Below are positions 520 through 62,175 of a stretch of DNA of 64,000 nt, one piece after another. The stretch covers positions 938 through 64,937 of the forward strand of contig JAZQYH010000001.1 in NCBI GenBank assembly GCA_045633415.1, given 5' to 3'. Positions within the stretch are counted from its first letter, which is position 1; every line of letters starts with the position of its first letter. The position numbers and the translations under genes were made by a program. The DNA comes from Oscillospiraceae bacterium (GTDB lineage Bacteria; Bacillota; Clostridia; Oscillospirales; Ruminococcaceae). The notes under the pieces are model-generated. The model worked only from the letters and a program-made list of their open reading frames with translations, searched no databases and was not told the DNA's origin.

Positions 520-2391
520 ATGCCTAAACATATAACCAGATTACTTTCAAGTTATCGTCGCTTAATACTGTTCCTTATGGACCTGCTTGTTATTTGTGGC
601 GCATACCTTTTCACATGGATGGCAATAGGTGGCCGGCGCTCTGTTGATGACTATTTCAGCATCACTGTTGCAAGCTGTTTCCTGTTTGTATCCTGCTATG
701 GAATAATTTTCTATGCTACAGGTATGTACGACAGTTTGTGGCGATATGCAGAAATTGTGGAATTCTTCAGATGTGCGGCATCCAGTGTGTTGGCCGTTAT
801 TGCATTTATGGTAATTTCCATGATGATTTTTCAGGAAAAAAGAGTTCCGATTACAGTTTATGCACTTTCTGCAGCATTGGCATCTTCATTTACACTTTAT
901 ACCCGATTAAGTTACCGAATGTTCCGTAATACCAAAATTAACTCAATGGGGAAAAAACGACAGCGAGTACTTCTTGTTGGTGCAGGGGATGCGGCATCTA
1001 CACTGATTCATGAACTTAACAAGAATACATCAAAAGAGATGAACGTTATCTGCGCAGTCGATGACGATAAAAATAAACTTGGCCGCAGTATTATAGGTGT
1101 TGAAATCCTTGGCACAACAGAAGATATTCCTTCCCTTGTTACACAGTGCCAGATAGATACTATTCTTATCGCTATTCCTACCCTGGACAGTGAAAACAGA
1201 CGCAGAATTCTCAATATCTGCTCACAGACAAACTGCAATATCAAAACACTGCCTGACATTGTAAAAATTATTGCAGACGGCAAAGACCTTGCAAGCCGCA
1301 TTACAGATATTAAAGTTGAAGACCTTCTTGGTCGTGACCCTGTAGTTCTTCAGGATGAAGCTACAGCGCTTATTAAAGATAAAGTTGTTTTTGTTACAGG
1401 TGGCGGTGGCTCCATCGGTAGCGAGTTGTGTCGCCAGATAGCCAATATCGGTCCTAAAAAGCTGGTAATTATTGATATTTACGAAAACTCAGCATATGCA
1501 GTACAGCAGGAACTTAAACGTAAATACAACGGCAATCTTAATCTGGAAGTAAGGATTGCTTCTGTTCGTGACACAAAGAAAATGGATGCACTTTTTGATG
1601 AGTTCAGACCACAGGTTGTTTTCCATGCGGCGGCACACAAACATGTTCCACTTATGGAAGATGCACCTGAAGAAGCAGTTAAAAACAATGTTTTTGGTAC
1701 TTACAACTGTGCACTGTGCGCTGAAAAATATGGCGTTGAAAAATTTGTTCTTATTTCCACAGACAAAGCTGTTAATCCTACAAATGTAATGGGTGCAACA
1801 AAACGTATCTGTGAAATGATTGTTCAGAACATTGCCCAGAGCAGTGAAGGCAGCACCACATTTGTTGCTGTACGTTTTGGCAACGTTCTCGGTTCAAACG
1901 GTTCAGTTTTACCACTGTTCAAAGACCAGCTGGCTGAAGGTGGTCCGCTGACTGTTACACATCCGGATATCGTTCGTTACTTTATGACTATCCCAGAAGC
2001 TGTAAGCCTTGTGCTTGAAGCCGGTGCTATGGGCGAAAAGAGCGGCGAAATATTTGTTCTGGATATGGGCGACCCTGTAAAAATTGTAACACTTGCAGAA
2101 AATGTTATTAAAATGTCTGGCTTCATTCCATATAAAGACATTGATATTGTGTTTACAGGCCTGCGTCCAGGTGAAAAAATGTATGAAGAACTTCTTCAGG
2201 ACGAAGAAGGTGTACGTAAAACAGCCAACAGTAAAATCTTTATTGGTTCCCCACTTAAAATGGATGCTGGCAGATTCTTTACAGACCTTCTGGAGCTGAA
2301 AGCGGTTGCATACGAAAATGACGGGGAAGCATTGCTCAAGAAACTGAAAGTTATGGTTCCTACATTCAATCACGAAATAGCTGAATATTGA
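520..2391 (+). CDS. Membrane-anchored nucleotide-sugar 4,6-dehydratase/epimerase (CapD / PglF / WbpM family polysaccharide biosynthesis protein)
   Basis: 623 aa. N-terminal TM helices are followed by two Rossmann segments (LLVGAGDAAS; VTGGGGSIGSE) and the SDR-like STDKAVNPTNVMGATKR motif. SD is AGGAGG upstream of the ATG. Confidence 0.85.
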   Translation: MPKHITRLLSSYRRLILFLMDLLVICGAYLFTWMAIGGRRSVDDYFSITVASCFLFVSCYGIIFYATGMYDSLWRYAEIVEFFRCAASSVLAVIAFMVISMMIFQEKRVPITVYALSAALASSFTLYTRLSYRMFRNTKINSMGKKRQRVLLVGAGDAASTLIHELNKNTSKEMNVICAVDDDKNKLGRSIIGVEILGTTEDIPSLVTQCQIDTILIAIPTLDSENRRRILNICSQTNCNIKTLPDIVKIIADGKDLASRITDIKVEDLLGRDPVVLQDEATALIKDKVVFVTGGGGSIGSELCRQIANIGPKKLVIIDIYENSAYAVQQELKRKYNGNLNLEVRIASVRDTKKMDALFDEFRPQVVFHAAAHKHVPLMEDAPEEAVKNNVFGTYNCALCAEKYGVEKFVLISTDKAVNPTNVMGATKRICEMIVQNIAQSSEGSTTFVAVRFGNVLGSNGSVLPLFKDQLAEGGPLTVTHPDIVRYFMTIPEAVSLVLEAGAMGEKSGEIFVLDMGDPVKIVTLAENVIKMSGFIPYKDIDIVFTGLRPGEKMYEELLQDEEGVRKTANSKIFIGSPLKMDAGRFFTDLLELKAVAYENDGEALLKKLKVMVPTFNHEIAEY

Positions 2392-2401
2392 GAGATTAAA
2401 T

Positions 2402-2986
2402 ATGTATAAATATTTTAAAAGATTTTTAGATATAGTTCTGTCAGCCAGTGCACTGCTGGTGCTTTCACCGGTTTTGTTGGTAATTGCAATATTAATCAAG
2501 CTTGACTCAAAAGGTCCTGTTTTGTTTAAACAGAAACGTGTTGCCAAAGATAAAGAGCATTTCCAGATACTTAAATTCAGAACAATGTATGCGGACGTAC
2601 CAAAAGATGTTCCTACACATCTTCTGGCAGACCCAGAAAGTAAAATTACAAAAATTGGCCGTTTTCTGCGTAAATCCAGCCTTGATGAACTGCCACAAAT
2701 CTGGAATATTCTTGTAGGCGAAATGAGCATTATCGGTCCACGACCAGCTTTGTGGAATCAGTTTGACCTTATTGAAGAACGCGACAAATATGGTGCAAAT
2801 GATGTCCGCCCAGGTCTTACAGGTCTTGCACAGGTAATGGGCAGAGATGAATTGCCAATCGATGTAAAAGCGAAATACGATGGCGAGTATGCCCGGAATG
2901 TAACTTTTGCACACGATGTAAAAATCTTCTTTAAAACAATTACCAGTGTTTTAGGCGCTGAAGGTGTAAAAGAAGGCAAGCAGTAA
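2402..2986 (+). CDS. Small monotopic sugar-phosphate transferase (Bac_transf family, PglC/WbaP C-terminal type)
   Basis: 194 aa with one N-terminal hydrophobic helix. Motifs KFRTM, DELPQ and IGPRP are typical of undecaprenyl-phosphate sugar phosphotransferases. Confidence 0.85.
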   Translation: MYKYFKRFLDIVLSASALLVLSPVLLVIAILIKLDSKGPVLFKQKRVAKDKEHFQILKFRTMYADVPKDVPTHLLADPESKITKIGRFLRKSSLDELPQIWNILVGEMSIIGPRPALWNQFDLIEERDKYGANDVRPGLTGLAQVMGRDELPIDVKAKYDGEYARNVTFAHDVKIFFKTITSVLGAEGVKEGKQ

Positions 2987-3001
2987 TCCAATAAAATTGA
3001 G

Positions 3002-3031
3002 GCCTCCCTCAGATGAGGGAGGCTTATGTTT
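3002..3031 (+). terminator. Intrinsic terminator after the sugar transferase
   Basis: Hairpin GCCTCCCTC-agat-GAGGGAGGC followed by a T-rich tract. Confidence 0.7.
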
Positions 3032-3035
3032 TTAT

Positions 3036-3137
3036 TTATTTTTCATTTGAATTCTTTTTGTTTTCGTTTTTCTGCTGTTTCTGACCACGCTGTTCAGTTT
3101 TCTGCTTTGTCTGATTTTTGTTGTTTTCTTTTGCCAT
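3036..3137 (-). CDS. Unlisted 33-codon hydrophilic Lys/Asn/Gln-rich ORF (possible minor spore protein)
   Basis: Reads MAKENNKNQTKQKTEQRGQKQQKNENKKNSNEK*. GGGAG lies 10 nt upstream of the ATG. Upstream is TGAATA-N17-TATACTA (3190-3161, minus strand). The ORF is too short for the ORF track. Confidence 0.3.
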   Translation of the reverse strand: MAKENNKNQTKQKTEQRGQKQQKNENKKNSNEK

Positions 3138-3293
3138 TTTAAATCAACTCCCTTCGCAAATAGTATAAACATACTGAAGTTTTTTATTCACAGTAAAAAA
3201 TTACCGTGGTCGTCACCACTTGCAAATACTGTAAAACTATGGTAAAATATAGGTTAGCAAAATTATAGAAACTAATATAAATAGGAGATAAAT

Positions 3294-4037
3294 ATGTCAG
3301 GACATTCAAAATGGAGCACCATCAAAAGAAAAAAAGGTGCTAACGATGCCGCAAGAGCAAAAGTATTTACAAAACTGGCAAGAGAAATTTCTGTTGCAGT
3401 TAAAGAAGGCGGTGCAGACCCTAACAACAATGCACGTCTGAGAGACCTGCTTGCAAAAGGCCGCGCAGCAAACGTTCCACAGGACAACCTGATGCGTGCT
3501 ATTAAAAAAGCTGGTGATAACGATAAAGAAAACTACGAATCAATCACATACGAAGGTTACGGCAACGGTGGTATCGCTGTTATCGTTGAATGTCTTTCTG
3601 ATAACCGCAACCGTACAGCATCCAACATCCGTCACTACTTTGACAAATTTGGCGGTAACCTTGGTACAACAGGCTGTGTTTCCTTTATGTTTGAAAACAA
3701 AGGTGTTATTGTAATCGAACAGGAAGATTACGATGAAGAAAAAGTGCTGGAAGACTGCTTTGAAGCAGGTGCAGCTGACGTTTCTTTCGAAGATGAAGGC
3801 ATCATCGAAGTTACAACAGAACCAAGCGACCTGTCCAGTGTTGCAGACGCTCTGGAAGGCATGGGCTATGCTCTCAAACAGCGCGAAACAGCTATGGTAC
3901 CAAACAACTACACAAGAGTTGACGACCCAGACACACTGAAAAAACTGGCTCTCCTCTTCGACAACCTTGAAGAAGACGATGACGTACAGAACGTTTGGAA
4001 CAACCTTGAAAACTCTGAAGACCTGCCAGAACTGTAA
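3294..4037 (+). CDS. yebC: YebC/PmpR family DNA-binding transcriptional regulator
   Basis: 247 aa starting MSGHSKWSTIKRKKGANDAARAKVFTKLAREI, the canonical YebC N-terminus. Good SD. Confidence 0.93.
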   Translation: MSGHSKWSTIKRKKGANDAARAKVFTKLAREISVAVKEGGADPNNNARLRDLLAKGRAANVPQDNLMRAIKKAGDNDKENYESITYEGYGNGGIAVIVECLSDNRNRTASNIRHYFDKFGGNLGTTGCVSFMFENKGVIVIEQEDYDEEKVLEDCFEAGAADVSFEDEGIIEVTTEPSDLSSVADALEGMGYALKQRETAMVPNNYTRVDDPDTLKKLALLFDNLEEDDDVQNVWNNLENSEDLPEL

Positions 4038-4047
4038 TAAGAAAATA

Positions 4048-4084
4048 AATGCTATTCTACTTGTGTGGAATAGCATTTTTATTT
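4048..4084 (+). terminator. Intrinsic terminator after yebC
   Basis: Hairpin AATGCTATTC...GAATAGCATT followed by TTTT. Confidence 0.7.
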
Positions 4085-4230
4085 GAAGCACAATGTAATT
4101 CAGATAATGCAGATACACAGTATATTGCAATAATCTATAATTTATAATATAATTATACTGTTAAAGTATTGTTTTAAGACAATACTTAATAATCAATTGT
4201 TTTGTTTAATTTTACAGAAAGGAGTAGAGT

Positions 4231-5784
4231 ATGTCATCAGCTGAATGTAGATTCTGTGGCAGTGAAATCACAGGCGAAATCTGTGAATGGTGTGGTTTTC
4301 CACTGGATTCCCATCAGGAACTGGCAGGTGTGTTGCCATATGGTACAGATTTGAATGGATATGTTATAGGCGATGTAGTTGATATGGATGGCGAAAGTAC
4401 AACATATCAGGCTTACAACACTGCTACACAGACAAAAGTTCTGGTCAAGGAATTTTTACCTGTGTCCATGGTTGCACCACGAGCAGGTAATAATATTACT
4501 GTACAGCAGGGTAAAGAAGTTCTGTTTAAAAATCTGATGATGGACTTTACCGACCTTTATACTGCCCTTTCAAAAATTGAAAGCAAAAATATACAGAAGA
4601 TTTTTCGGATTTTCAGTGCCAACGGAACAGTATATGTTGTGATGGAAATGGTAAAAGGGGATAATCTTCGCCAGAATCTTATTAAACGTGGTAAGCCATA
4701 TACTTTTAAAGAAGCACGCTGGCTGTATCAGGAACTGTTTGAACTTCTTGAAATACTGGAGAAAAATAACATTGCCCATGGTGGTATCAGCGACGAAACT
4801 GTGCTGATTACACCGGATAATACAGTAGTGCTGACAAACTTTGCAATACGGGACCTTCGTGTTAAAAACGAGCATATAGTTTACAAACTGTACGACAATT
4901 TCTCTGCACCGGAACAGTACAGCCTTAACCGGTTTTCCGGTTTTTACACAGACATATACTCTGTGTCAGCTCTTTTCTACCATACAGTGACAGGTCGTCC
5001 ATTTATAGCTGAAAATCTGGCTTTAAAAGACCTTGCACGATATATGCCTAAGTATGCTATAGAAACTTTAAAATACGCTACAAAGCAAAATCCATTGGAT
5101 AGAATAGATAATATCGGCGACTTTGTGCTGATGCTGGATAATAAAGCCACAATAGCAAAACCAGAGAAGAAAAAGCAGGAAAAACATACTGAAAGTATGG
5201 ACCTTAACAAAAAGCTTACTTTGATTATAATTGCCCTTGTTATAGTGCTGTTTGCCGTAGGTATAATGGCGGTTTCATCCACAGCCGATTCTTCTTCATC
5301 CGGGGAGTCTTCATCAGTGGTTGAATCATTACCTGTTGTGGAAAAACTGGTTGTACCTGATTTGGTGGGAAAAAACTATAAAGATATAATGAATGACCCT
5401 GAAGTTGTAAATAATTTTTATATTTACACCACAGAAGAGTTTGCCAACCATCCGATAGGTCAGATTATCAGCCAGCAGCCACAGGCTAATATTTCTATTG
5501 AAAAAGGCGCATCTATTTACGTTACTATCAGTAAAGGTAAAGAAGTAATAAAAGTACAGGTGCCTTACGGTCTTGCAGGCAGACCGCTTGGAGAGGTAGA
5601 GGGATTGTTGAATACAATGGATATTCCGTTTGTTACAAAATATGTCCCACAGACTCGGCAGTATTCATTCGGCACAGTAACAGGCACAGATATTCCAGAA
5701 GGGGTAATGATAGACCCTGCTGAAACTTATATAATTGTTTATGTAGCTGATGATACACCTGTTGTGGAAATACCACAGAATTAA
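4231..5784 (+). CDS. Membrane protein: N-terminal zinc ribbon, degenerate Ser/Thr-kinase fold (pseudokinase), one TM helix, two PASTA-like extracellular repeats
   Basis: CRFCGSEITGEICEWCG forms CxxC...CxxC. VLVKEF and SAPEQ are retained, but HGGISDETV replaces HRDxKxxN and TNFA replaces DFG. TM helix is LTLIIIALVIVLFAVGIMAV. VVPDLVGKNYKDI...YVTISKG is PASTA-like. Confidence 0.7.
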   Translation: MSSAECRFCGSEITGEICEWCGFPLDSHQELAGVLPYGTDLNGYVIGDVVDMDGESTTYQAYNTATQTKVLVKEFLPVSMVAPRAGNNITVQQGKEVLFKNLMMDFTDLYTALSKIESKNIQKIFRIFSANGTVYVVMEMVKGDNLRQNLIKRGKPYTFKEARWLYQELFELLEILEKNNIAHGGISDETVLITPDNTVVLTNFAIRDLRVKNEHIVYKLYDNFSAPEQYSLNRFSGFYTDIYSVSALFYHTVTGRPFIAENLALKDLARYMPKYAIETLKYATKQNPLDRIDNIGDFVLMLDNKATIAKPEKKKQEKHTESMDLNKKLTLIIIALVIVLFAVGIMAVSSTADSSSSGESSSVVESLPVVEKLVVPDLVGKNYKDIMNDPEVVNNFYIYTTEEFANHPIGQIISQQPQANISIEKGASIYVTISKGKEVIKVQVPYGLAGRPLGEVEGLLNTMDIPFVTKYVPQTRQYSFGTVTGTDIPEGVMIDPAETYIIVYVADDTPVVEIPQN

Positions 5785-5891: not shown

Positions 5892-6761
5892 TTATTCAAC
5901 TTCCACCAGTTCATATTCTCTGCTGCCAAAGCCCAGAGCTGCAGAAGCTTCAATTGTGTAAACACCACGTCTGCTTTCGATTCTTTCCAGAAGATGTGCC
6001 TGACCAGGGTCGTCTGTAGCAGCATATACAAGGTCGATACATGCCTGGTCGATTGCGATAGGGTCTGTGGATACCAGAATACCGATGTCTTTCATACATG
6101 GGTCTTCAGCTTTTGCAACACAGTCACAGTCAACAGACATATTTTTCATAACGTTTACATATGCCGCATTTTCGCCAAAGTATTCCACTACACTGCCAGC
6201 GGCGTCAGCCATAGCTTCAAGGAATTTTGTTCTGTCCTGTGTCCAGATTTTTTCTGGTTCGCCAGCACCGTGGATGTATGCTTTGCCGAAGGAAGAACCA
6301 ATACCGATAGACAGCTGTTTCAGAGCGCCGCCATAGCCACCCATTGGATGACCTTTGAAATGGCTCAATACCAGCAGGCTGTCATAGTTTGCAAGATTTT
6401 TACCTACATAGTTTTTATCTATCTGTTTATAATTTTTTACTTCAAGTACCAAGTCTGGACCTTCTGCGTCCAGCAGGTCTACATCGTACATTTCGCTCCA
6501 GCCATGGTATTTAAACAGCTCCAGATGCTTTTCTGTAGTGTCACGCTGACCAGCATAAGCTGTGTTACATTCTACGATAGTACCGCCTGTAACATCAATC
6601 AGTGGTTTCCAGAAATCAGGACCAAGGAAGTTCTGGTTGCCTTTTTCACCACTGTGAACTTTCAGTGCTACTTTGCCAGGCAGCTCTTTGCCGAGAAGTT
6701 TATATAATTCCAATACTTTTTCAGGTGTAATAGTTCTGCTGAAATATACTTTTGGTTTCAT
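5892..6761 (-). CDS. DUF362 domain protein
   Basis: 289 aa starting MKPKVYFSRTITPEKVLELYKLL...KVHSGEKGN, with SHFKGHPMGGYGGALKQLSIG and a CDC motif. Recognised from memory as DUF362-like. SD is AAGGAG. Confidence 0.6.
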   Translation of the reverse strand: MKPKVYFSRTITPEKVLELYKLLGKELPGKVALKVHSGEKGNQNFLGPDFWKPLIDVTGGTIVECNTAYAGQRDTTEKHLELFKYHGWSEMYDVDLLDAEGPDLVLEVKNYKQIDKNYVGKNLANYDSLLVLSHFKGHPMGGYGGALKQLSIGIGSSFGKAYIHGAGEPEKIWTQDRTKFLEAMADAAGSVVEYFGENAAYVNVMKNMSVDCDCVAKAEDPCMKDIGILVSTDPIAIDQACIDLVYAATDDPGQAHLLERIESRRGVYTIEASAALGFGSREYELVEVE

Positions 6762-56361: not shown

Positions 56362-57597
56362 ATGGAAAATAAAAAAGGCATTCACTATGGCTGGTTCATA
56401 GTGTTCTCATGTTTTATGATTATGTCACTGTACCTGTGCATCGTTATGAACTGCCCTGGTCTGTTCCTTATCAGCGTAACAGAAGAATTCGGCATTTCCA
56501 GAAGCCAGTACACACTTAACACTACAGTTATTTCTGCAGCAATGATGGTAGTATCAATGAATGCAGGTAGAATTTTCTCTAAATTCAGTGTTAAAAAAGT
56601 TATGATGGTTTCTTCCATCATTCTTCCAATCGCATATTTCTTCTTCTCAAAAGCTTCAAACATCTACATGTTCTACGCAATCAGCGCAGTTGTAGGTCTT
56701 TGCCTTGGTCTTTGTGGTATGGTACCAATGAGTACACTTATCACACGCTGGTTCAATGAAAAGAAAGGTCTGGCAACAGGTCTGGCTTTCACAGGCAGTG
56801 GTCTTGGTGGTATGATTCTGCAGCCAATCATTGGTAAACTTATTGTAAATATAGGCTGGAGAAATACATATGCTATCCTTGCACTGCTTATGTTTGTTCT
56901 GGTTGTACCATGTACAGTGTTCATTCTTAAAGATGACCCAGCTGAAAAAGGTCTGGAACCTGTTGGCGGCAAACCAAAACAGGTTGCAAATACACCTGTA
57001 GCAGATGACGGTATGACACTGGCAGAAGCAAGAAAAAAATCTTACTTCTGGATTTTCCTGCCACTGGTTACAATCTCTTCCGCAGCAGCATGTTCCATGG
57101 TTCAGAACGTTTCACCATACGTTACAGACCTTGGCTTTGACCCAACAGTTGCAGCAAGCCTTTCTGCTCTCAGCCTTGGCATTCTGGCTGCATGTAAAGT
57201 TCTGCTTGGTCAGATTTATGACAAAAAAGGTTCTCTGTTTACAACTGTAATGAGCCTTACATGTCTTGCAGCAGCTGCAGCTTGCTACGGCTCTGCTGTA
57301 AACTCTACATTCCTGTATGCAGGTATTGTTATCAGCGGTCTGGGTATTGCATACACAACAGTAGGCTACCCAATCAACACACAGTCCATGTTTGGCAAAA
57401 AAGATTACAGTGCTATTTACGGTAACGTTGCCAGCTTCTCTTCAATCGGTACAGCTATCGGCTCTCCAATCACATCCATGATTTACGATGCTACAGGCAG
57501 CTACCGTATGGCTTGGTTTATGTGGGCAGCAGTAAATGCTGTTGCAGTAGCAGTATTCATCGTTCTGCACAAAATGGCGGAGAAAGACAAAAAATAA
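56362..57597 (+). CDS. MFS transporter, oxalate/formate antiporter (OFA)-like
   Basis: 411 aa with 12 TM helices. Starts GIHYGWFIVFSCFMIM, with a central loop and a C-terminal six-helix half. Confidence 0.75.
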   Translation: MENKKGIHYGWFIVFSCFMIMSLYLCIVMNCPGLFLISVTEEFGISRSQYTLNTTVISAAMMVVSMNAGRIFSKFSVKKVMMVSSIILPIAYFFFSKASNIYMFYAISAVVGLCLGLCGMVPMSTLITRWFNEKKGLATGLAFTGSGLGGMILQPIIGKLIVNIGWRNTYAILALLMFVLVVPCTVFILKDDPAEKGLEPVGGKPKQVANTPVADDGMTLAEARKKSYFWIFLPLVTISSAAACSMVQNVSPYVTDLGFDPTVAASLSALSLGILAACKVLLGQIYDKKGSLFTTVMSLTCLAAAAACYGSAVNSTFLYAGIVISGLGIAYTTVGYPINTQSMFGKKDYSAIYGNVASFSSIGTAIGSPITSMIYDATGSYRMAWFMWAAVNAVAVAVFIVLHKMAEKDKK

Positions 57598-57607
57598 ACA
57601 AAGTTTT

Positions 57608-57640
57608 AAACACCTGCAGTGTAAATGCAGGTGTTTTTTA
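57608..57640 (+). terminator. Intrinsic terminator after the MFS gene
   Basis: AAACACCTGCA-gtgtaaa-TGCAGGTGTTT followed by TTT. Confidence 0.85.
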
Positions 57641-57852: not shown

Positions 57853-59961
57853 ATGCCTCAGATGCACGAAAACTGGTATGGCTTCAAACCAGCTACTTGG
57901 ACAACATCAGTAAATGTAAGAAGCTTTATCAAACACAACTACACACCATATGATGGTGATGAAAGCTTCCTGGCAGGCCCAACAAGAAATACTCTTGACC
58001 TGTGGCTGCAGGTAAGAGAACTGTCCAAAGAAGAAATCGCAGCAGGCGGTGTTCTTGATATGGACACAGAAGTTATTTCTACAATCACTTCCCATGGTCC
58101 TGGTTATCTGAACAAAGAAACTGAAACAATCGTTGGTTTCCAGACAGATAAACCATTCAAACGTGCACTTATGCCTTATGGCGGTATCAGAATGGCTGAA
58201 AAAGCATGTTCTGACAACGGCTATAAAGTTGACGAAAAAATCAGCGAATTCTTCTCAGTTCACAGAAAAACACACAACGCTGGTGTTTTCGATGCTTACA
58301 CACCAGAAATGAGAGCTTGTCGTTCATCTCACATCATCACAGGTCTTCCAGATGCTTACGGTCGCGGCCGTATCATCGGTGACTACCGCAGAATTGCTCT
58401 GTATGGTATCGACAGACTGATTGAAGACAAAAATGAACAGAAAGCTACAACAGAAAAAGTTATGAGCGAAGACAACATCCGTCTGCGTGAAGAACTTTCT
58501 GAACAGATCCGCGCTCTGCAGGAACTGAAAAAAATGGCTGCAAGCTACGGCTTTGATATTTCCCAGCCATCTAAAGACGTTAAGGAAGCAATCCAGTGGA
58601 CATACTTCGGCTACCTTGCTGCTGTAAAAGAACAGAACGGTGCTGCTATGTCTCTTGGCCGTACATCCACATTCCTTGACATCTATGCAAAACGCGACCT
58701 TGATAACGGTGTTTACACAGAAGAACAGATTCAGGAATTTGTTGACCACTTCATTATGAAACTGCGTATGGTTAAATTCGCACGTACACCTGAATACAAT
58801 GCACTGTTCTCCGGTGACCCACAGTGGGTAACAGAATCCATTGGTGGTGTTGGTATCGACGGCAGACACATGGTTACAAAAATGTCCTACCGTTTCCTCC
58901 ACACACTTGACAACCTTGGTTCTTCTCCAGAACCAAACCTGACAGTTCTGTGGTCTGTACAGCTGCCAGAAAACTTCAAACGCTACTGTGCAAAAATGTC
59001 CATCGAAACATCTTCCATCCAGTATGAAAACGATGACCTGATGAGAATGACACACGGTGACGACTACGCTATCGCTTGCTGCGTATCTTCAATGAGAGTT
59101 GGTAAAGAAATGCAGTTCTTCGGCGCACGTGCAAACCTTGCAAAATGTCTGCTGTACGCTATCAACGGTGGTGTTGATGAAGTTTCCAGAAAACAGGTTG
59201 GTCCTAAATACAGAGCAATCGAAGGCGACTACCTTGAATACAACGATGTAATGGAAAAATACGATGCTATGATGAAATGGCTGGCTGAAGTTTATGTAAA
59301 CGCACTGAACATCATCCACTACATGCACGACAAATACTGCTACGAAAAAGTACAGATGGCTCTCCATGACAGAGATGTAACAAGATGGTTTGCTACAGGT
59401 ATCGCAGGTCTGTCAGTAGTTGCTGACTCCCTGTCTGCTATCAAATATGCAAAAGTAAAAATCGTTCGTGACGAAACAGGTTTCCCAGTAGACTATGTTG
59501 TTGAAGGCGAATTCCCTAAATACGGTAACGATGATGACAGAGTTGACAACCTCGCTAAAGAAATCGTTCACAGATTTATGGAACACATCCGCAAAATCCC
59601 AACATACAGAAACGGTATTCCTACAACATCTATCCTGACAATCACATCCAACGTTGTTTACGGTAAAGCTACAGGTTCTACACCAGACGGCCGTAAACGT
59701 GGTGAAGCATTTGCTCCAGGTGCTAACCCAATGCACCGCCGTGATACAAATGGTGCTGTTGCATCCATGGCTTCTGTTGCAAAACTGCCATTCATCGATG
59801 CACAGGATGGTATTTCCAACACATTCTCCATCATTCCAGGCGCACTGGGTAAAGAAGACAGAATCTTCATGGGCGACCTTGATATCGACCTTGACTGCTC
59901 TACAGGCGCTTGTGCAACACCAACACTGTTCGAAGGCCTCGATGCTGAAGACGCTGAATAA
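57853..59961 (+). CDS. pflB: Pyruvate formate-lyase (formate C-acetyltransferase) catalytic chain lacking the glycyl-radical domain
   Basis: 702 aa. Has [16 protein letters not shown] and the active-site [28 protein letters not shown]. Aligns to ...[12 protein letters not shown], then a non-homologous acidic tail and TAA (59959-61). There is no RVSGY motif. Confidence 0.9.
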
Positions 59962-59983
59962 TATATAACAGGAGGAACATACG

Positions 59984-60226
59984 ATGATTGCATCTAAATC
60001 CCAGATTGACAACCTTGTAGGTCTGCTTGACGGCTACATGGCAAAAGGTGGTCACCACCTCAACGTTAACGTATTCACAAGAGAAACACTGCTGGACGCT
60101 CAGGCTCATCCAGAAAACTATCCACAGTTGACAGTTCGTGTTTCCGGTTACGCAGTTAACTTCATCAAACTGACAAAAGAACAGCAGGACGAAGTTATCT
60201 CCAGAACATTCCACGATCAGATCTAA
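59984..60226 (+). CDS. Stand-alone glycyl-radical domain protein (GrcA/YfiD-like; equals the missing PflB C-terminus)
   Basis: 80 aa. AGGAGG (59970-75) lies 8 nt before the ATG. Reads [68 protein letters not shown]. Confidence 0.85.
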
Positions 60227-60234
60227 TTAAAGCT

Positions 60235-60984
60235 ATGAAGGGTTATATTCACTCAATAGAAAGCTTTGGCACAGTTGATGGTCCTGGTCTGCGCTTTGTG
60301 GTATTCTTTCAGGGATGTCCTATGCGTTGCCAGTATTGTCACAATCCTGATACCTGGCAGCCAAATACAGGGGAACAAATGTCAGCCGAAGAAATAATGG
60401 AAAAGTTCCGCAGGAATAAAAGCTTTTATTCCACAGGCGGCATCACAGTAACAGGGGGCGAGCCTTTGTTACAGATAGATTTTCTTACTGAACTGTTCCG
60501 CATCGCCAAAAGCGAAGGTGTACACACCTGTATTGACACATCCGGTATCACATACAAACCAGACAATGGGGAGTATATGAAAAAGCTGGATACGCTGATG
60601 GAATATACCGACCTGATAATGCTGGACATCAAACATATAGACGAGGAAAAACATCGTGCTCTTACAGCACACAGCAATAAAAACATTTTGGAATTTGTAA
60701 AATATCTTGATAGTAAAAAAATTCCATTATGGATAAGACATGTTGTGGTTCCTACAGTTACAGATGACCCGCTTTATTGGGAAAAGCTGGGCAGATTTAT
60801 GGCCACAGTTTCAAATATCAAAGCCTTGGATGTTTTGCCATACCACACAATGGGTGTTAAAAAATATCACGAGCTTGGTATTGAATATCCTCTTGAAGGA
60901 GTTCCATCCCGGGATAAAGAACTTGCACGCAAGGCAAGGGAAGTTATTATCAACGGTATGAAGCTGGCCAGAGCTGGCAAATAA
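60235..60984 (+). CDS. pflA: Pyruvate formate-lyase activating enzyme (radical SAM)
   Basis: 249 aa with GYIHSIESFGTVDGPGLRFVVFFQGCPMRCQYCHNPDTW. Confidence 0.95.
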   Translation: MKGYIHSIESFGTVDGPGLRFVVFFQGCPMRCQYCHNPDTWQPNTGEQMSAEEIMEKFRRNKSFYSTGGITVTGGEPLLQIDFLTELFRIAKSEGVHTCIDTSGITYKPDNGEYMKKLDTLMEYTDLIMLDIKHIDEEKHRALTAHSNKNILEFVKYLDSKKIPLWIRHVVVPTVTDDPLYWEKLGRFMATVSNIKALDVLPYHTMGVKKYHELGIEYPLEGVPSRDKELARKAREVIINGMKLARAGK

Positions 60985-60992
60985 ATAAAAAT

Positions 60993-61024
60993 AAACACTG
61001 CAGAATTTGGTTTCTGCAGTGTTT
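60993..61024. terminator. Bidirectional terminator
   Basis: AAACACTGCAGAA-tttggt-TTCTGCAGTGTTT, flanked by A and T runs. Confidence 0.85.
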
Positions 61025-61029
61025 TTATT

Positions 61030-61797
61030 TTAGCCGAATATTTTATTTATCATATATTCTGCAAACTCTGTAAGCTGGCAATGGCTGAATTCAGTCTCTG
61101 TATTATATACATACATATTATATGCTTTTGCAATGGTGTCTTTAAAATTACTTATGTTTTCAATACCCCATTCGCCGCCAGCTTTTTTGGATAAAACCAG
61201 ATTTTCCTGCATATATGCATATACCCTGCATAAATTCAGTATTATATACATTGGATTATCCAGTATATCTTCCTTAGCACTTTCTATATCAAATTTGATG
61301 CTGTCCAGATAATATTCTTTCGGCACAGGAGAGAACACCAGTTCTTTATCTTTTCCATACCATGTTATCCCCACATGGTTTATTACTGTGAAATGTGCCG
61401 CAAGGTCTTTGTCTGTTCCTTGCAGTTTATTTAGATGACCATCCATATCATTTATATAGAAAGGCCTGTGATAGTTGGAAAAATGCAGCTGATATGGGGT
61501 AGGGTATACAAAGCTGGTGCAGTCTTTCTCAAGAACAAAGCTCATTTCTATGCCTTTTACACATACTTTATCATTTGTATCCAGAATAAAGGATATTATT
61601 TCCTGCTTTTGTGCAAACTCTGGCGCTGTTTTTGTAACTACAATAAAATCGATATCACTCATAAGGGGATTATAACAGCTGAAAGCCACGGAACCATGCA
61701 GATAAATACCAACAAGATTATCTCCAAGTATGTCCAGAAACTTATTTGTTATGCTATCCAAGGTGGTTTTTACTTTAAAATCTATAGTCTGGTGCAT
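61030..61797 (-). CDS. Aminoglycoside nucleotidyltransferase-like protein (ANT(9)/AadA-type NTase domain plus DUF4111-like C-terminus)
   Basis: Start chosen at MHQTIDF (GGAG upstream). NTase motif is GIYLHGSVAFSCYNPLMSDIDFIVV. Confidence 0.7.
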   Translation of the reverse strand: MHQTIDFKVKTTLDSITNKFLDILGDNLVGIYLHGSVAFSCYNPLMSDIDFIVVTKTAPEFAQKQEIISFILDTNDKVCVKGIEMSFVLEKDCTSFVYPTPYQLHFSNYHRPFYINDMDGHLNKLQGTDKDLAAHFTVINHVGITWYGKDKELVFSPVPKEYYLDSIKFDIESAKEDILDNPMYIILNLCRVYAYMQENLVLSKKAGGEWGIENISNFKDTIAKAYNMYVYNTETEFSHCQLTEFAEYMINKIFG

Positions 61798-62175
61798 TAT
61801 ATTTAACTCCATAACTTACTTTATTTAATAATATCACATTAAAAAGACGGTTACAACAAATAGTTTGATGTGTATAACAATACGAATATCAAATAAATGT
61901 TAAATAAATAACTCGTATAAACTTAATATCTGTTGCTTGAATAAATATGTTGAAAATATGCATAAAAATAATAAAAACACGACAATAGTACATAGTATGG
62001 TGAAATAATATAAACATATCGATGAAAAACGATTAATATTATATTCGTTGTTTGTCAATATGTACAAAAATAGAATATTTAATAAAAATGCATTGACAAT
62101 GCATAAAAATAAGCGTACAATACAGCCATAATAAAAAACAACCGAAAAACGGTTATATAGAGAGAGGTAAACACT

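Follow-up and report, generated by a model that had tools for sequence, protein, structure and literature searches.

A pyruvate formate-lyase (PFL) locus in a 64-kb stretch of an Oscillospiraceae bacterium genome (contig JAZQYH010000001.1; the whole stretch is referred to below as the window) probably encodes a two-subunit enzyme whose radical domain is supplied in trans, with the genes arranged in a single pflB'-grcA3-pflA transcription unit. PFL is the most widespread glycyl-radical enzyme and is central to the fermentation of gut anaerobes (PMC13450708).

Two probable chains of one PFL

The genes and sequence elements that make up the locus are as follows.

57608..57636, + strand: terminator-like hairpin at the 5' boundary of the pfl genes (11-pair stem, then a T run), which ends the upstream transporter gene
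57853..59961, + strand: PFL large (catalytic) chain, 702 aa, without a glycyl-radical loop (PF02901, 735 bits; TIGR01255, 1106.7 bits)
59077..59082, + strand: active-site Cys-Cys pair, Cys409/Cys410 in IACCVSSM (59071-59094), equivalent to C418/C419 of Escherichia coli PflB
59860..59895, + strand: tail element E1, an acidic alternating segment with a pattern conserved in split large chains
59896..59943, + strand: tail element E3, a two-cysteine motif homologous to the C terminus of the middle open reading frame (ORF) of related loci
59959..59983, + strand: junction, comprising TAA (59959-59961) and 22 nt of spacer whose AGGAGG (59970-59975) precedes the ATG by 8 nt
59984..60226, + strand: GrcA3-type glycyl-radical small subunit, 80 aa (NF038360, 165.3 bits)
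60137..60151, + strand: RVSGY glycyl-radical motif, with Gly55 (60146-60148) equivalent to Gly734 of E. coli PflB
60235..60984, + strand: pflA, radical S-adenosylmethionine activating enzyme, 249 aa (TIGR02493, 305.3 bits)
60993..61024, both strands: bidirectional terminator-like hairpin that closes the operon (13-pair stem, T runs on each strand)

The preliminary description of this locus, which was made from the sequence alone, had placed the large ORF with its IACCVSSM motif, the TAA, the AGGAGG, the ATG at 59984, the 80-aa RVSGY ORF, and the pflA gene behind it at these positions, and all of its coordinates were correct. It had also claimed that the small ORF takes up the PFL alignment where the large chain leaves it, and the profiles bear this out. 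The large chain covers positions 2-665 of the 744 in TIGR01255, with a score of 1106.7 bits against a cut-off of 994.2 bits, and the small ORF covers positions 664-743, such that the two are complementary halves of one PFL profile. The Pfam Gly_radical model is halved in the same manner (positions 1-51 on the large chain and 50-106 on the small ORF). The features by which a PFL is recognized are accordingly distributed over two polypeptides: the barrel and the adjacent catalytic cysteines are on the large chain (PF02901, TIGR01255, and IACCVSSM, the last invariant across all related large chains inspected), while the RVSGY domain, expected on the same polypeptide, lies on the separate 80-aa ORF in another frame. 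A cognate PflA is encoded as well, scoring above the 231.75-bit cut-off of TIGR02493.

Among the glycyl-radical cofactor families, the small ORF belongs to GrcA3. It passes NCBIfam NF038360 over positions 2-78 of 78 (cut-off, 158 bits; E = 2.4e-49) and fails both GrcA (TIGR04365; 92.6 versus 170 bits, over positions 66-125 of 126 only) and GrcA2 (NF008341; 103.5 versus 145 bits). It has no equivalent of the ~60-residue N-terminal half of GrcA/YfiD, and its residues 20-78 align with YfiD 67-125. Residues 9-77 align with residues 683-756 of E. coli PflB, for which a structure has been solved, which places the split point between PflB residues ~678 and 683. The alignment of small-ORF relatives shows no variation at R52, S54, G55, or Y56 and very little at V53.

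The small ORF is in the +1 frame relative to the large ORF, with only 5 open codons upstream of its ATG, and pflA starts 8 nt 3' of it. Between 57636 and 60993, the + strand has no terminator-like site with a comparable stem; two weak 5-pair matches lie inside the large ORF, and the gap between it and the small ORF is free of them. Since the two hairpins bracket the three genes and none separates the large ORF from the small one, the genes are predicted to form a single transcription unit.

Conservation of the split across genomes

We scanned one genome per GTDB species and obtained at least 597 related stretches, the best 80 of which (78-90% identity) were analyzed. A stand-alone small ORF of 78-83 codons was present in 78 of these 80 loci, and only the remaining 2 were fused. 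A truncated PFL large chain lay immediately upstream in all 77 loci in which the contig permits a check, a Shine-Dalgarno-like sequence preceded the small ORF in nearly all of the related loci, and pflA followed it directly in most. Seven Ruminococcus-type loci (L020, L049, L050, L061, L062, L063, and L065) have no pflA within ~4 kb 3' of the small ORF, and the activase must therefore be encoded elsewhere in those genomes.

Protein-level comparisons agree with this picture. The database holds hundreds of relatives of the small protein, and the 120 best-scoring ones listed are 86-100% identical to it and almost all 80 aa long. Large chains of 696-710 aa likewise number in the hundreds; the 120 relatives listed share 83-100% identity and measure 684-710 aa, and two longer ones besides are probable internal-duplication artefacts. 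P0186 (805 aa) and P0188 (821 aa) were considered as fusions with the small subunit and rejected, being large chains with exact internal tandem duplications of ~110-120 residues that are probably artefacts of metagenome assembly. A search of a representative library with the 80-aa ORF returned mostly fragmentary gene calls of odd length, which are uninformative on split versus fused forms. The isolate carriers include Sellimonas caecigallum JCM 35759 (NZ_CP173660) and Ruminococcus callidus ATCC 27760 (NZ_CP186925), Lacrimispora saccharolytica is a further carrier, and metagenome-assembled genomes (MAGs) with the arrangement are labelled R. flavefaciens, Blautia, Dorea, Hungatella, Enterocloster, and Faecousia. 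Split PFL occurs in at least 77 species related to the source of the window and is widespread in strict anaerobes.

The window itself apparently comes from a MAG, and its closest database matches are MAGs, which invites the explanation that a frameshift error in assembly or sequencing has broken a continuous gene of ~750 aa. We consider this barely conceivable. The identical 80-aa ORF is found 22 nt after the large-chain gene in 6 independent metagenome assemblies from different samples, complete genomes of isolates share the architecture, and the junction consists of a 34-residue insertion, a stop codon, 22 nt of spacer that contain AGGAGG, and then a new ATG, which no single indel produces. 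Nor does the arrangement reflect programmed frameshifting or readthrough to a fused protein: the spacers of the two-gene loci, with lengths of 0-90 nt, occur in all three relative frames, which excludes conserved recoding.

A truncation just before the radical domain is also what an inactivating mutation would be expected to leave, so that the large chain could be a decaying pseudogene and the 80-aa ORF a classical spare part for another, intact PFL. Selection makes this highly improbable. In a comparison of the window with 23 relatives that share its architecture, synonymous differences were saturated (pS 0.54-1.0). Nonsynonymous differences (pN) amounted to 0.07-0.18 for the core, 0.08-0.13 for the small ORF, and 0.13-0.38 for the tail, for which pS taken alone was 0.67-1.0. 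Low pN against saturated pS indicates that purifying selection acts on all three parts; pN remains at ~0.1 in lineages that are 71-84% identical. The large chain moreover keeps its catalytic Cys pair and exceeds the trusted cut-off of TIGR01255 despite the missing C terminus, and dozens of species have conserved the position of the stop, the E1 extension, and the Shine-Dalgarno sequence. On this comparative evidence, the split is a conserved gene arrangement and neither a frameshift nor a recent pseudogene. The preliminary description had argued against a simple frameshift, had proposed that related loci be compared for conservation of the stop, the Shine-Dalgarno sequence, and the ATG and for selection on both ORFs, and had named relatives with one continuous ORF as an observation that would count against it. 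The six assemblies, the 78 split loci, and the signature of selection uphold its argument on each of these points, with one continuous ORF seen in the 2 fused loci only.

A further question is whether the split enzyme, if functional, is the only PFL of its host. A full-length pflB encoded elsewhere might dominate, with the split locus serving as a specialized paralogue (e.g., under microaerobic stress) or with GrcA3 also repairing the full-length enzyme. The NCBI family name, "autonomous glycyl radical cofactor," implies a spare part; pflB, tdcE, and grcA all occur together in E. coli (PMC12338860); and a close relative, L072, encodes a canonical fused PFL with ALGRDEKNREDNLIALLDGY in place of E1. 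Set against these points, no second PFL or RVSGY-type motif occurs in the 64-kb window, and GrcA3 sat beside a truncated large chain in every testable genome locus, whereas E. coli grcA is unlinked to pflB. So constant a linkage would be unexpected for a free-standing repair factor, and we judge the paralogue explanation distinctly unlikely relative to a two-subunit enzyme.

The C-terminal tail and the middle protein

Beyond its PFL-alignable part, the large chain continues for 33-34 residues before the TAA. This tail comprises E1 and the motif C-x4-C-x2-PTLFEGLD (E3). The E1 pattern, [IV]F.GD[IL][DE][IV][DE]L, is found in most split large chains, is degenerate in a few, and is absent from canonical fused PFL; at 83% overall identity, the tail still keeps a pattern starting [RKQ][IV]F.GD[IL][DE][IV][DE].

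The loci resolve into architectures that differ in where the Cys motif is encoded. Two-gene loci (46/80, the window included) have a Cys-bearing tail on the large chain and a spacer of 0-149 nt; their tails are of the window type, of the type EPDCACCEPN in Blautia and Sellimonas, or of the type C.SCANIPN. In three-gene loci (30/80), the large chain stops soon after E1 (VFAGDLDLDKLRGE, then a stop), and the 200- to 400-nt "spacer" encodes a third ORF of 60-90 aa, as at positions 3717-3970 of L034, where it contains MADSKERQIDDIVSMLDQFMSGNGGHMNISV, and at positions 5001-5270 of L087. The remaining split loci are L055, a two-gene locus with a tail devoid of cysteines, and one locus that could not be classified. 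In Lacrimispora saccharolytica and others, the middle ORF is annotated as "hypothetical protein"; scans of the middle ORFs with Pfam and NCBIfam returned no family and no iron-sulfur (Fe-S) or metal-binding match.

Profile comparisons tie the middle protein to both of its neighbors. Its first 33 residues resemble the first 32 of GrcA3, that is, the helix and beta10 (hhalign probability, 96%; E = 4e-9), and its C terminus shows a C...AC..PT(L) motif in common with the tail of the window. Against positions 53-76 of the middle-ORF profile, the window tail reaches 20.1 bits, and the best of 200 shuffled tails scored 2.6 bits. As read from these alignments, the window tail is E1 plus the C-terminal motif of the middle protein (E3) without the beta10-like segment, and it is a module and not debris. 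The preliminary description had credited the tail with no PFL counterpart, but the tail does have one in the C terminus of the separate middle ORF, to which it is homologous. The notion that the Cys motif is a homologue of the glycine loop found no support, because the hhalign match between the middle ORF and GrcA3 is limited to the first 33 residues of the former. Since a copy of the GrcA3 beta10 segment is present in the middle protein, both proteins may compete for a single slot, and the middle protein may, as a matter of speculation, be a placeholder.

In a neighbor-joining tree of large chains rooted on the fused L072, three-gene loci were basal and paraphyletic, and two-gene forms were derived more than once. 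This ordering of architectures, obtained with one outgroup and a distance method, is tentative. L039 (positions 1880-4237), from a MAG labelled Treponemataceae, encodes a 786-aa single-chain PFL with an insert of ~40 residues, SIDLASMKNYGNCMSCDTATIMAAPTVAETLANPV, exactly at the split point. It is nested among the split forms in the tree, which suggests a secondary re-fusion and possibly horizontal transfer or a binning error.

Benzylsuccinate synthase and 4-hydroxyphenylacetate decarboxylase have small Cys-rich accessory subunits, a background reflected in part in PMC12590467, and these glycyl-radical enzymes lend some appeal to the view that the Cys tail does more than dock, whether by binding a metal or an Fe-S cluster across the dimer or by redox gating, in which case the regulation of the enzyme would be unlike that of canonical PFL. 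Cys682, Cys687, and the following Pro are conserved, and the middle-ORF family has an invariant C62 and P65. Compared with the Fe-S accessory subunits (beta and gamma of benzylsuccinate synthase and gamma of 4-hydroxyphenylacetate decarboxylase), however, the tail has two conserved cysteines (C-x4-C), with only two per chain overall and three in the Blautia-type tail; the middle ORFs match no Fe-S or metal-binding family, and some splits (L055 and L096) do without the motif. We regard a role for the Cys tail beyond docking as unlikely. The resemblance to the multi-subunit enzymes (benzylsuccinate synthase is alpha-beta-gamma) extends to small polypeptides encoded beside the large chain; in those enzymes, the large chain keeps the glycine and Fe-S clusters are bound by the small subunits, whereas the small subunit here is the radical domain itself.

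Some features of the surroundings were also recorded. Upstream of the pfl genes, positions 56362-57597 (+) encode an apparent transporter, a multi-pass membrane protein of 411 aa; downstream, positions 61030-61812 (-) encode a 260-aa ORF on the opposite strand, whose counterpart in L082 has NTP_transf_2/AadA_C domains that indicate a nucleotidyltransferase of the aminoglycoside-adenylyltransferase type. An Rfam scan of the operon returned only a subthreshold GlmZ_SraJ match at 57532-57640 (+), with 23.7 bits against a gathering score of 60, which overlaps the upstream terminator and was judged to be chance. In the Lacrimispora-type three-gene locus L087, a gene for a 56-aa ferredoxin (6431-6601) directly follows pflA, and its product could serve as an electron donor for the activase.

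A probable radical domain in trans

For a glycyl-radical donor that acts on PflB in trans, experimental precedent exists in E. coli (PMC8683613, PMC12338860). GrcA/YfiD is activated by PflA, and its radical takes a hydrogen from C419 of PflB intermolecularly (PMC12338860). Once activated, PflB(1-695) together with YfiD has wild-type activity, though its binding is poor; YfiD binding needs PflB residues 696-733, and free YfiD without its partner is not activated (Andorfer et al. 2021, PMC8683613). With this precedent, the complementary profile halves, and the conserved arrangement, the two-subunit glycyl-radical enzyme first proposed in the preliminary description is supported.

Modeled on these homologues, the 702-aa chain would provide the Cys-Cys active site and all of the ten-stranded barrel but its last strand, and GrcA3 would provide a helix, beta10 (GGHHLNVNV), the finger loop with Gly55, and the C-terminal helix, corresponding to PflB ~683-759. 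GrcA3 would first dock into the vacant slot of the large chain. PflA would then take a hydrogen from Gly55, activation thus following docking, and the glycyl radical would finally reach across the subunit interface to generate a thiyl radical on the Cys pair, much as E. coli GrcA does on PflB. The extension formed by E1 and E3 may be a docking or recognition element for the small subunit, analogous to PflB 696-733; in three-gene loci, the middle protein would supply that recognition role.

The system resembles E. coli GrcA/YfiD in having a small homologue of the PFL C terminus with RVSGY, activated by PflA, that would pass its radical to the Cys pair of a separate chain. It differs in that YfiD is a protein of 127 aa with a disordered 60-residue N-terminal half, encoded apart from pflB, and its partner PflB has or had a radical domain of its own; here, the genes are adjacent in one predicted operon, the partner never encodes a radical domain, and the 80-aa protein includes the helix before beta10. 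In the engineered pair, as is proposed here, a barrel without beta10 and the Gly loop is complemented in trans. The engineered cut falls at 695/696, however, ~15 residues after the natural split (which follows ~678), and that pair, which lacks the conserved extension of the natural large chain, binds and activates poorly.

Viral genomes add to the case for a small subunit that works in trans. IMG/VR viral contigs contain 18 GrcA3-like small ORFs (L088-L105) with 56-83% identity, all but one 70-83%, that encode proteins of ~77-86 aa on predicted phage contigs of 4-333 kb (most 40-333 kb). Most have no PFL large chain within 4 kb, and such stand-alone genes would be of no evident use unless the small subunit were able to act in trans. 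The ORF of L097 (3992-4225) sits between a full-length nrdD and nrdG; this ORF and that of L095 (3995-4228), the two that were checked, match phrog_1209 (unknown function). T4 Y06I and phrog_1209 are similarly stand-alone PFL-type glycyl-radical mini-proteins, although, unlike the genes of the window, the phage genes usually have no adjacent PFL large chain. One viral contig, L096, does encode a split PFL, with a large chain at 1920-3977 and a small ORF at 4001-4225, 20 nt apart; its large chain ends at NTFSITPASLGKDED (ASLGKDED), then a stop, with neither the E1 nor the E3 tail. In L094 and L104, a large-chain match lies downstream of the small ORF, in a reading frame that looks interrupted.

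Oxygen cleaves glycyl-radical enzymes at the radical glycine. Plausibly, then, oxygen damage to a split enzyme would cost the 9-kDa subunit only, which could be replaced without resynthesis of the 79-kDa chain, and by analogy with the E. coli spare part we infer that GrcA3 may be an exchangeable cartridge. A broader proposal, which is possible but which we advance only tentatively, is that split PFL is modular, with a consumable radical subunit whose docking or exchange is governed by C-x4-C-x2-PT(L) on the large chain or on the middle protein, the latter acting as a non-radical placeholder or plug, and with cartridges encoded by phages of these hosts.

Several considerations weigh against the two-subunit reading. 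AlphaFold2 models of the concatenated pair had a mean predicted local distance difference test score (pLDDT) of 33.7 from the single sequence and 41.4 from a 71-row alignment in which all rows were ≥83% identical; at such values, the proposed docking geometry and position of the tail are drawn from homology. A second, full-length pflB may lie outside the 64-kb window that was searched for one. Engineered truncated E. coli PflB, as noted, binds YfiD poorly (PMC8683613), so that efficient assembly of the natural pair must need further features. The Cys motif is absent from the viral split PFL L096 and the genomic locus L055, and E3 is therefore not strictly required for a split.

In the literature, Andorfer et al. 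count only YfiD and T4 Y06I as validated (PMC8683613), a June 2026 review of glycyl-radical enzymes mentions only the spare part YfiD (PMC13450708), and a 2025 review ascribes such proteins to "some facultative anaerobes" (PMC12288474). Full-text literature searches turned up neither a split PFL nor GrcA3, and no publication that uses the GrcA3 name. The earlier remark, that no described PFL was known to be obligately split this way, agrees with these searches, but the small family was already in the NCBIfam catalogue under the name GrcA3. That model, NF038360, is an annotation rule, and the 80-aa ORF matches it over its full length and above the curated cut-off; the name of the family implies a spare part, yet the genomic evidence here points to a constitutive subunit. 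What would be new is the constitutive, operon-linked radical domain in trans, with its conserved Cys element.

If this interpretation is true, the PFL of Lachnospiraceae and Ruminococcaceae (names as given in the genome records) is assembled from two or three polypeptides. A constitutive in-trans variant would then have to be added to the models of how the enzyme is activated and damaged by oxygen, which are based on the single-chain PflB of E. coli and an occasional spare part. The split enzyme would be a natural, optimized version of the weak tPFL:YfiD pair and could show how a radical domain is recognized, flipped out, and replaced. Microbiome surveys that filter by length or rely on single genes may miscount or misannotate split PFLs, and the GrcA3 genes of strict anaerobes may be mistaken for oxygen-repair factors. 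Next to a very well-studied enzyme, the conserved Cys motif and the third, unannotated ORF would be new elements.

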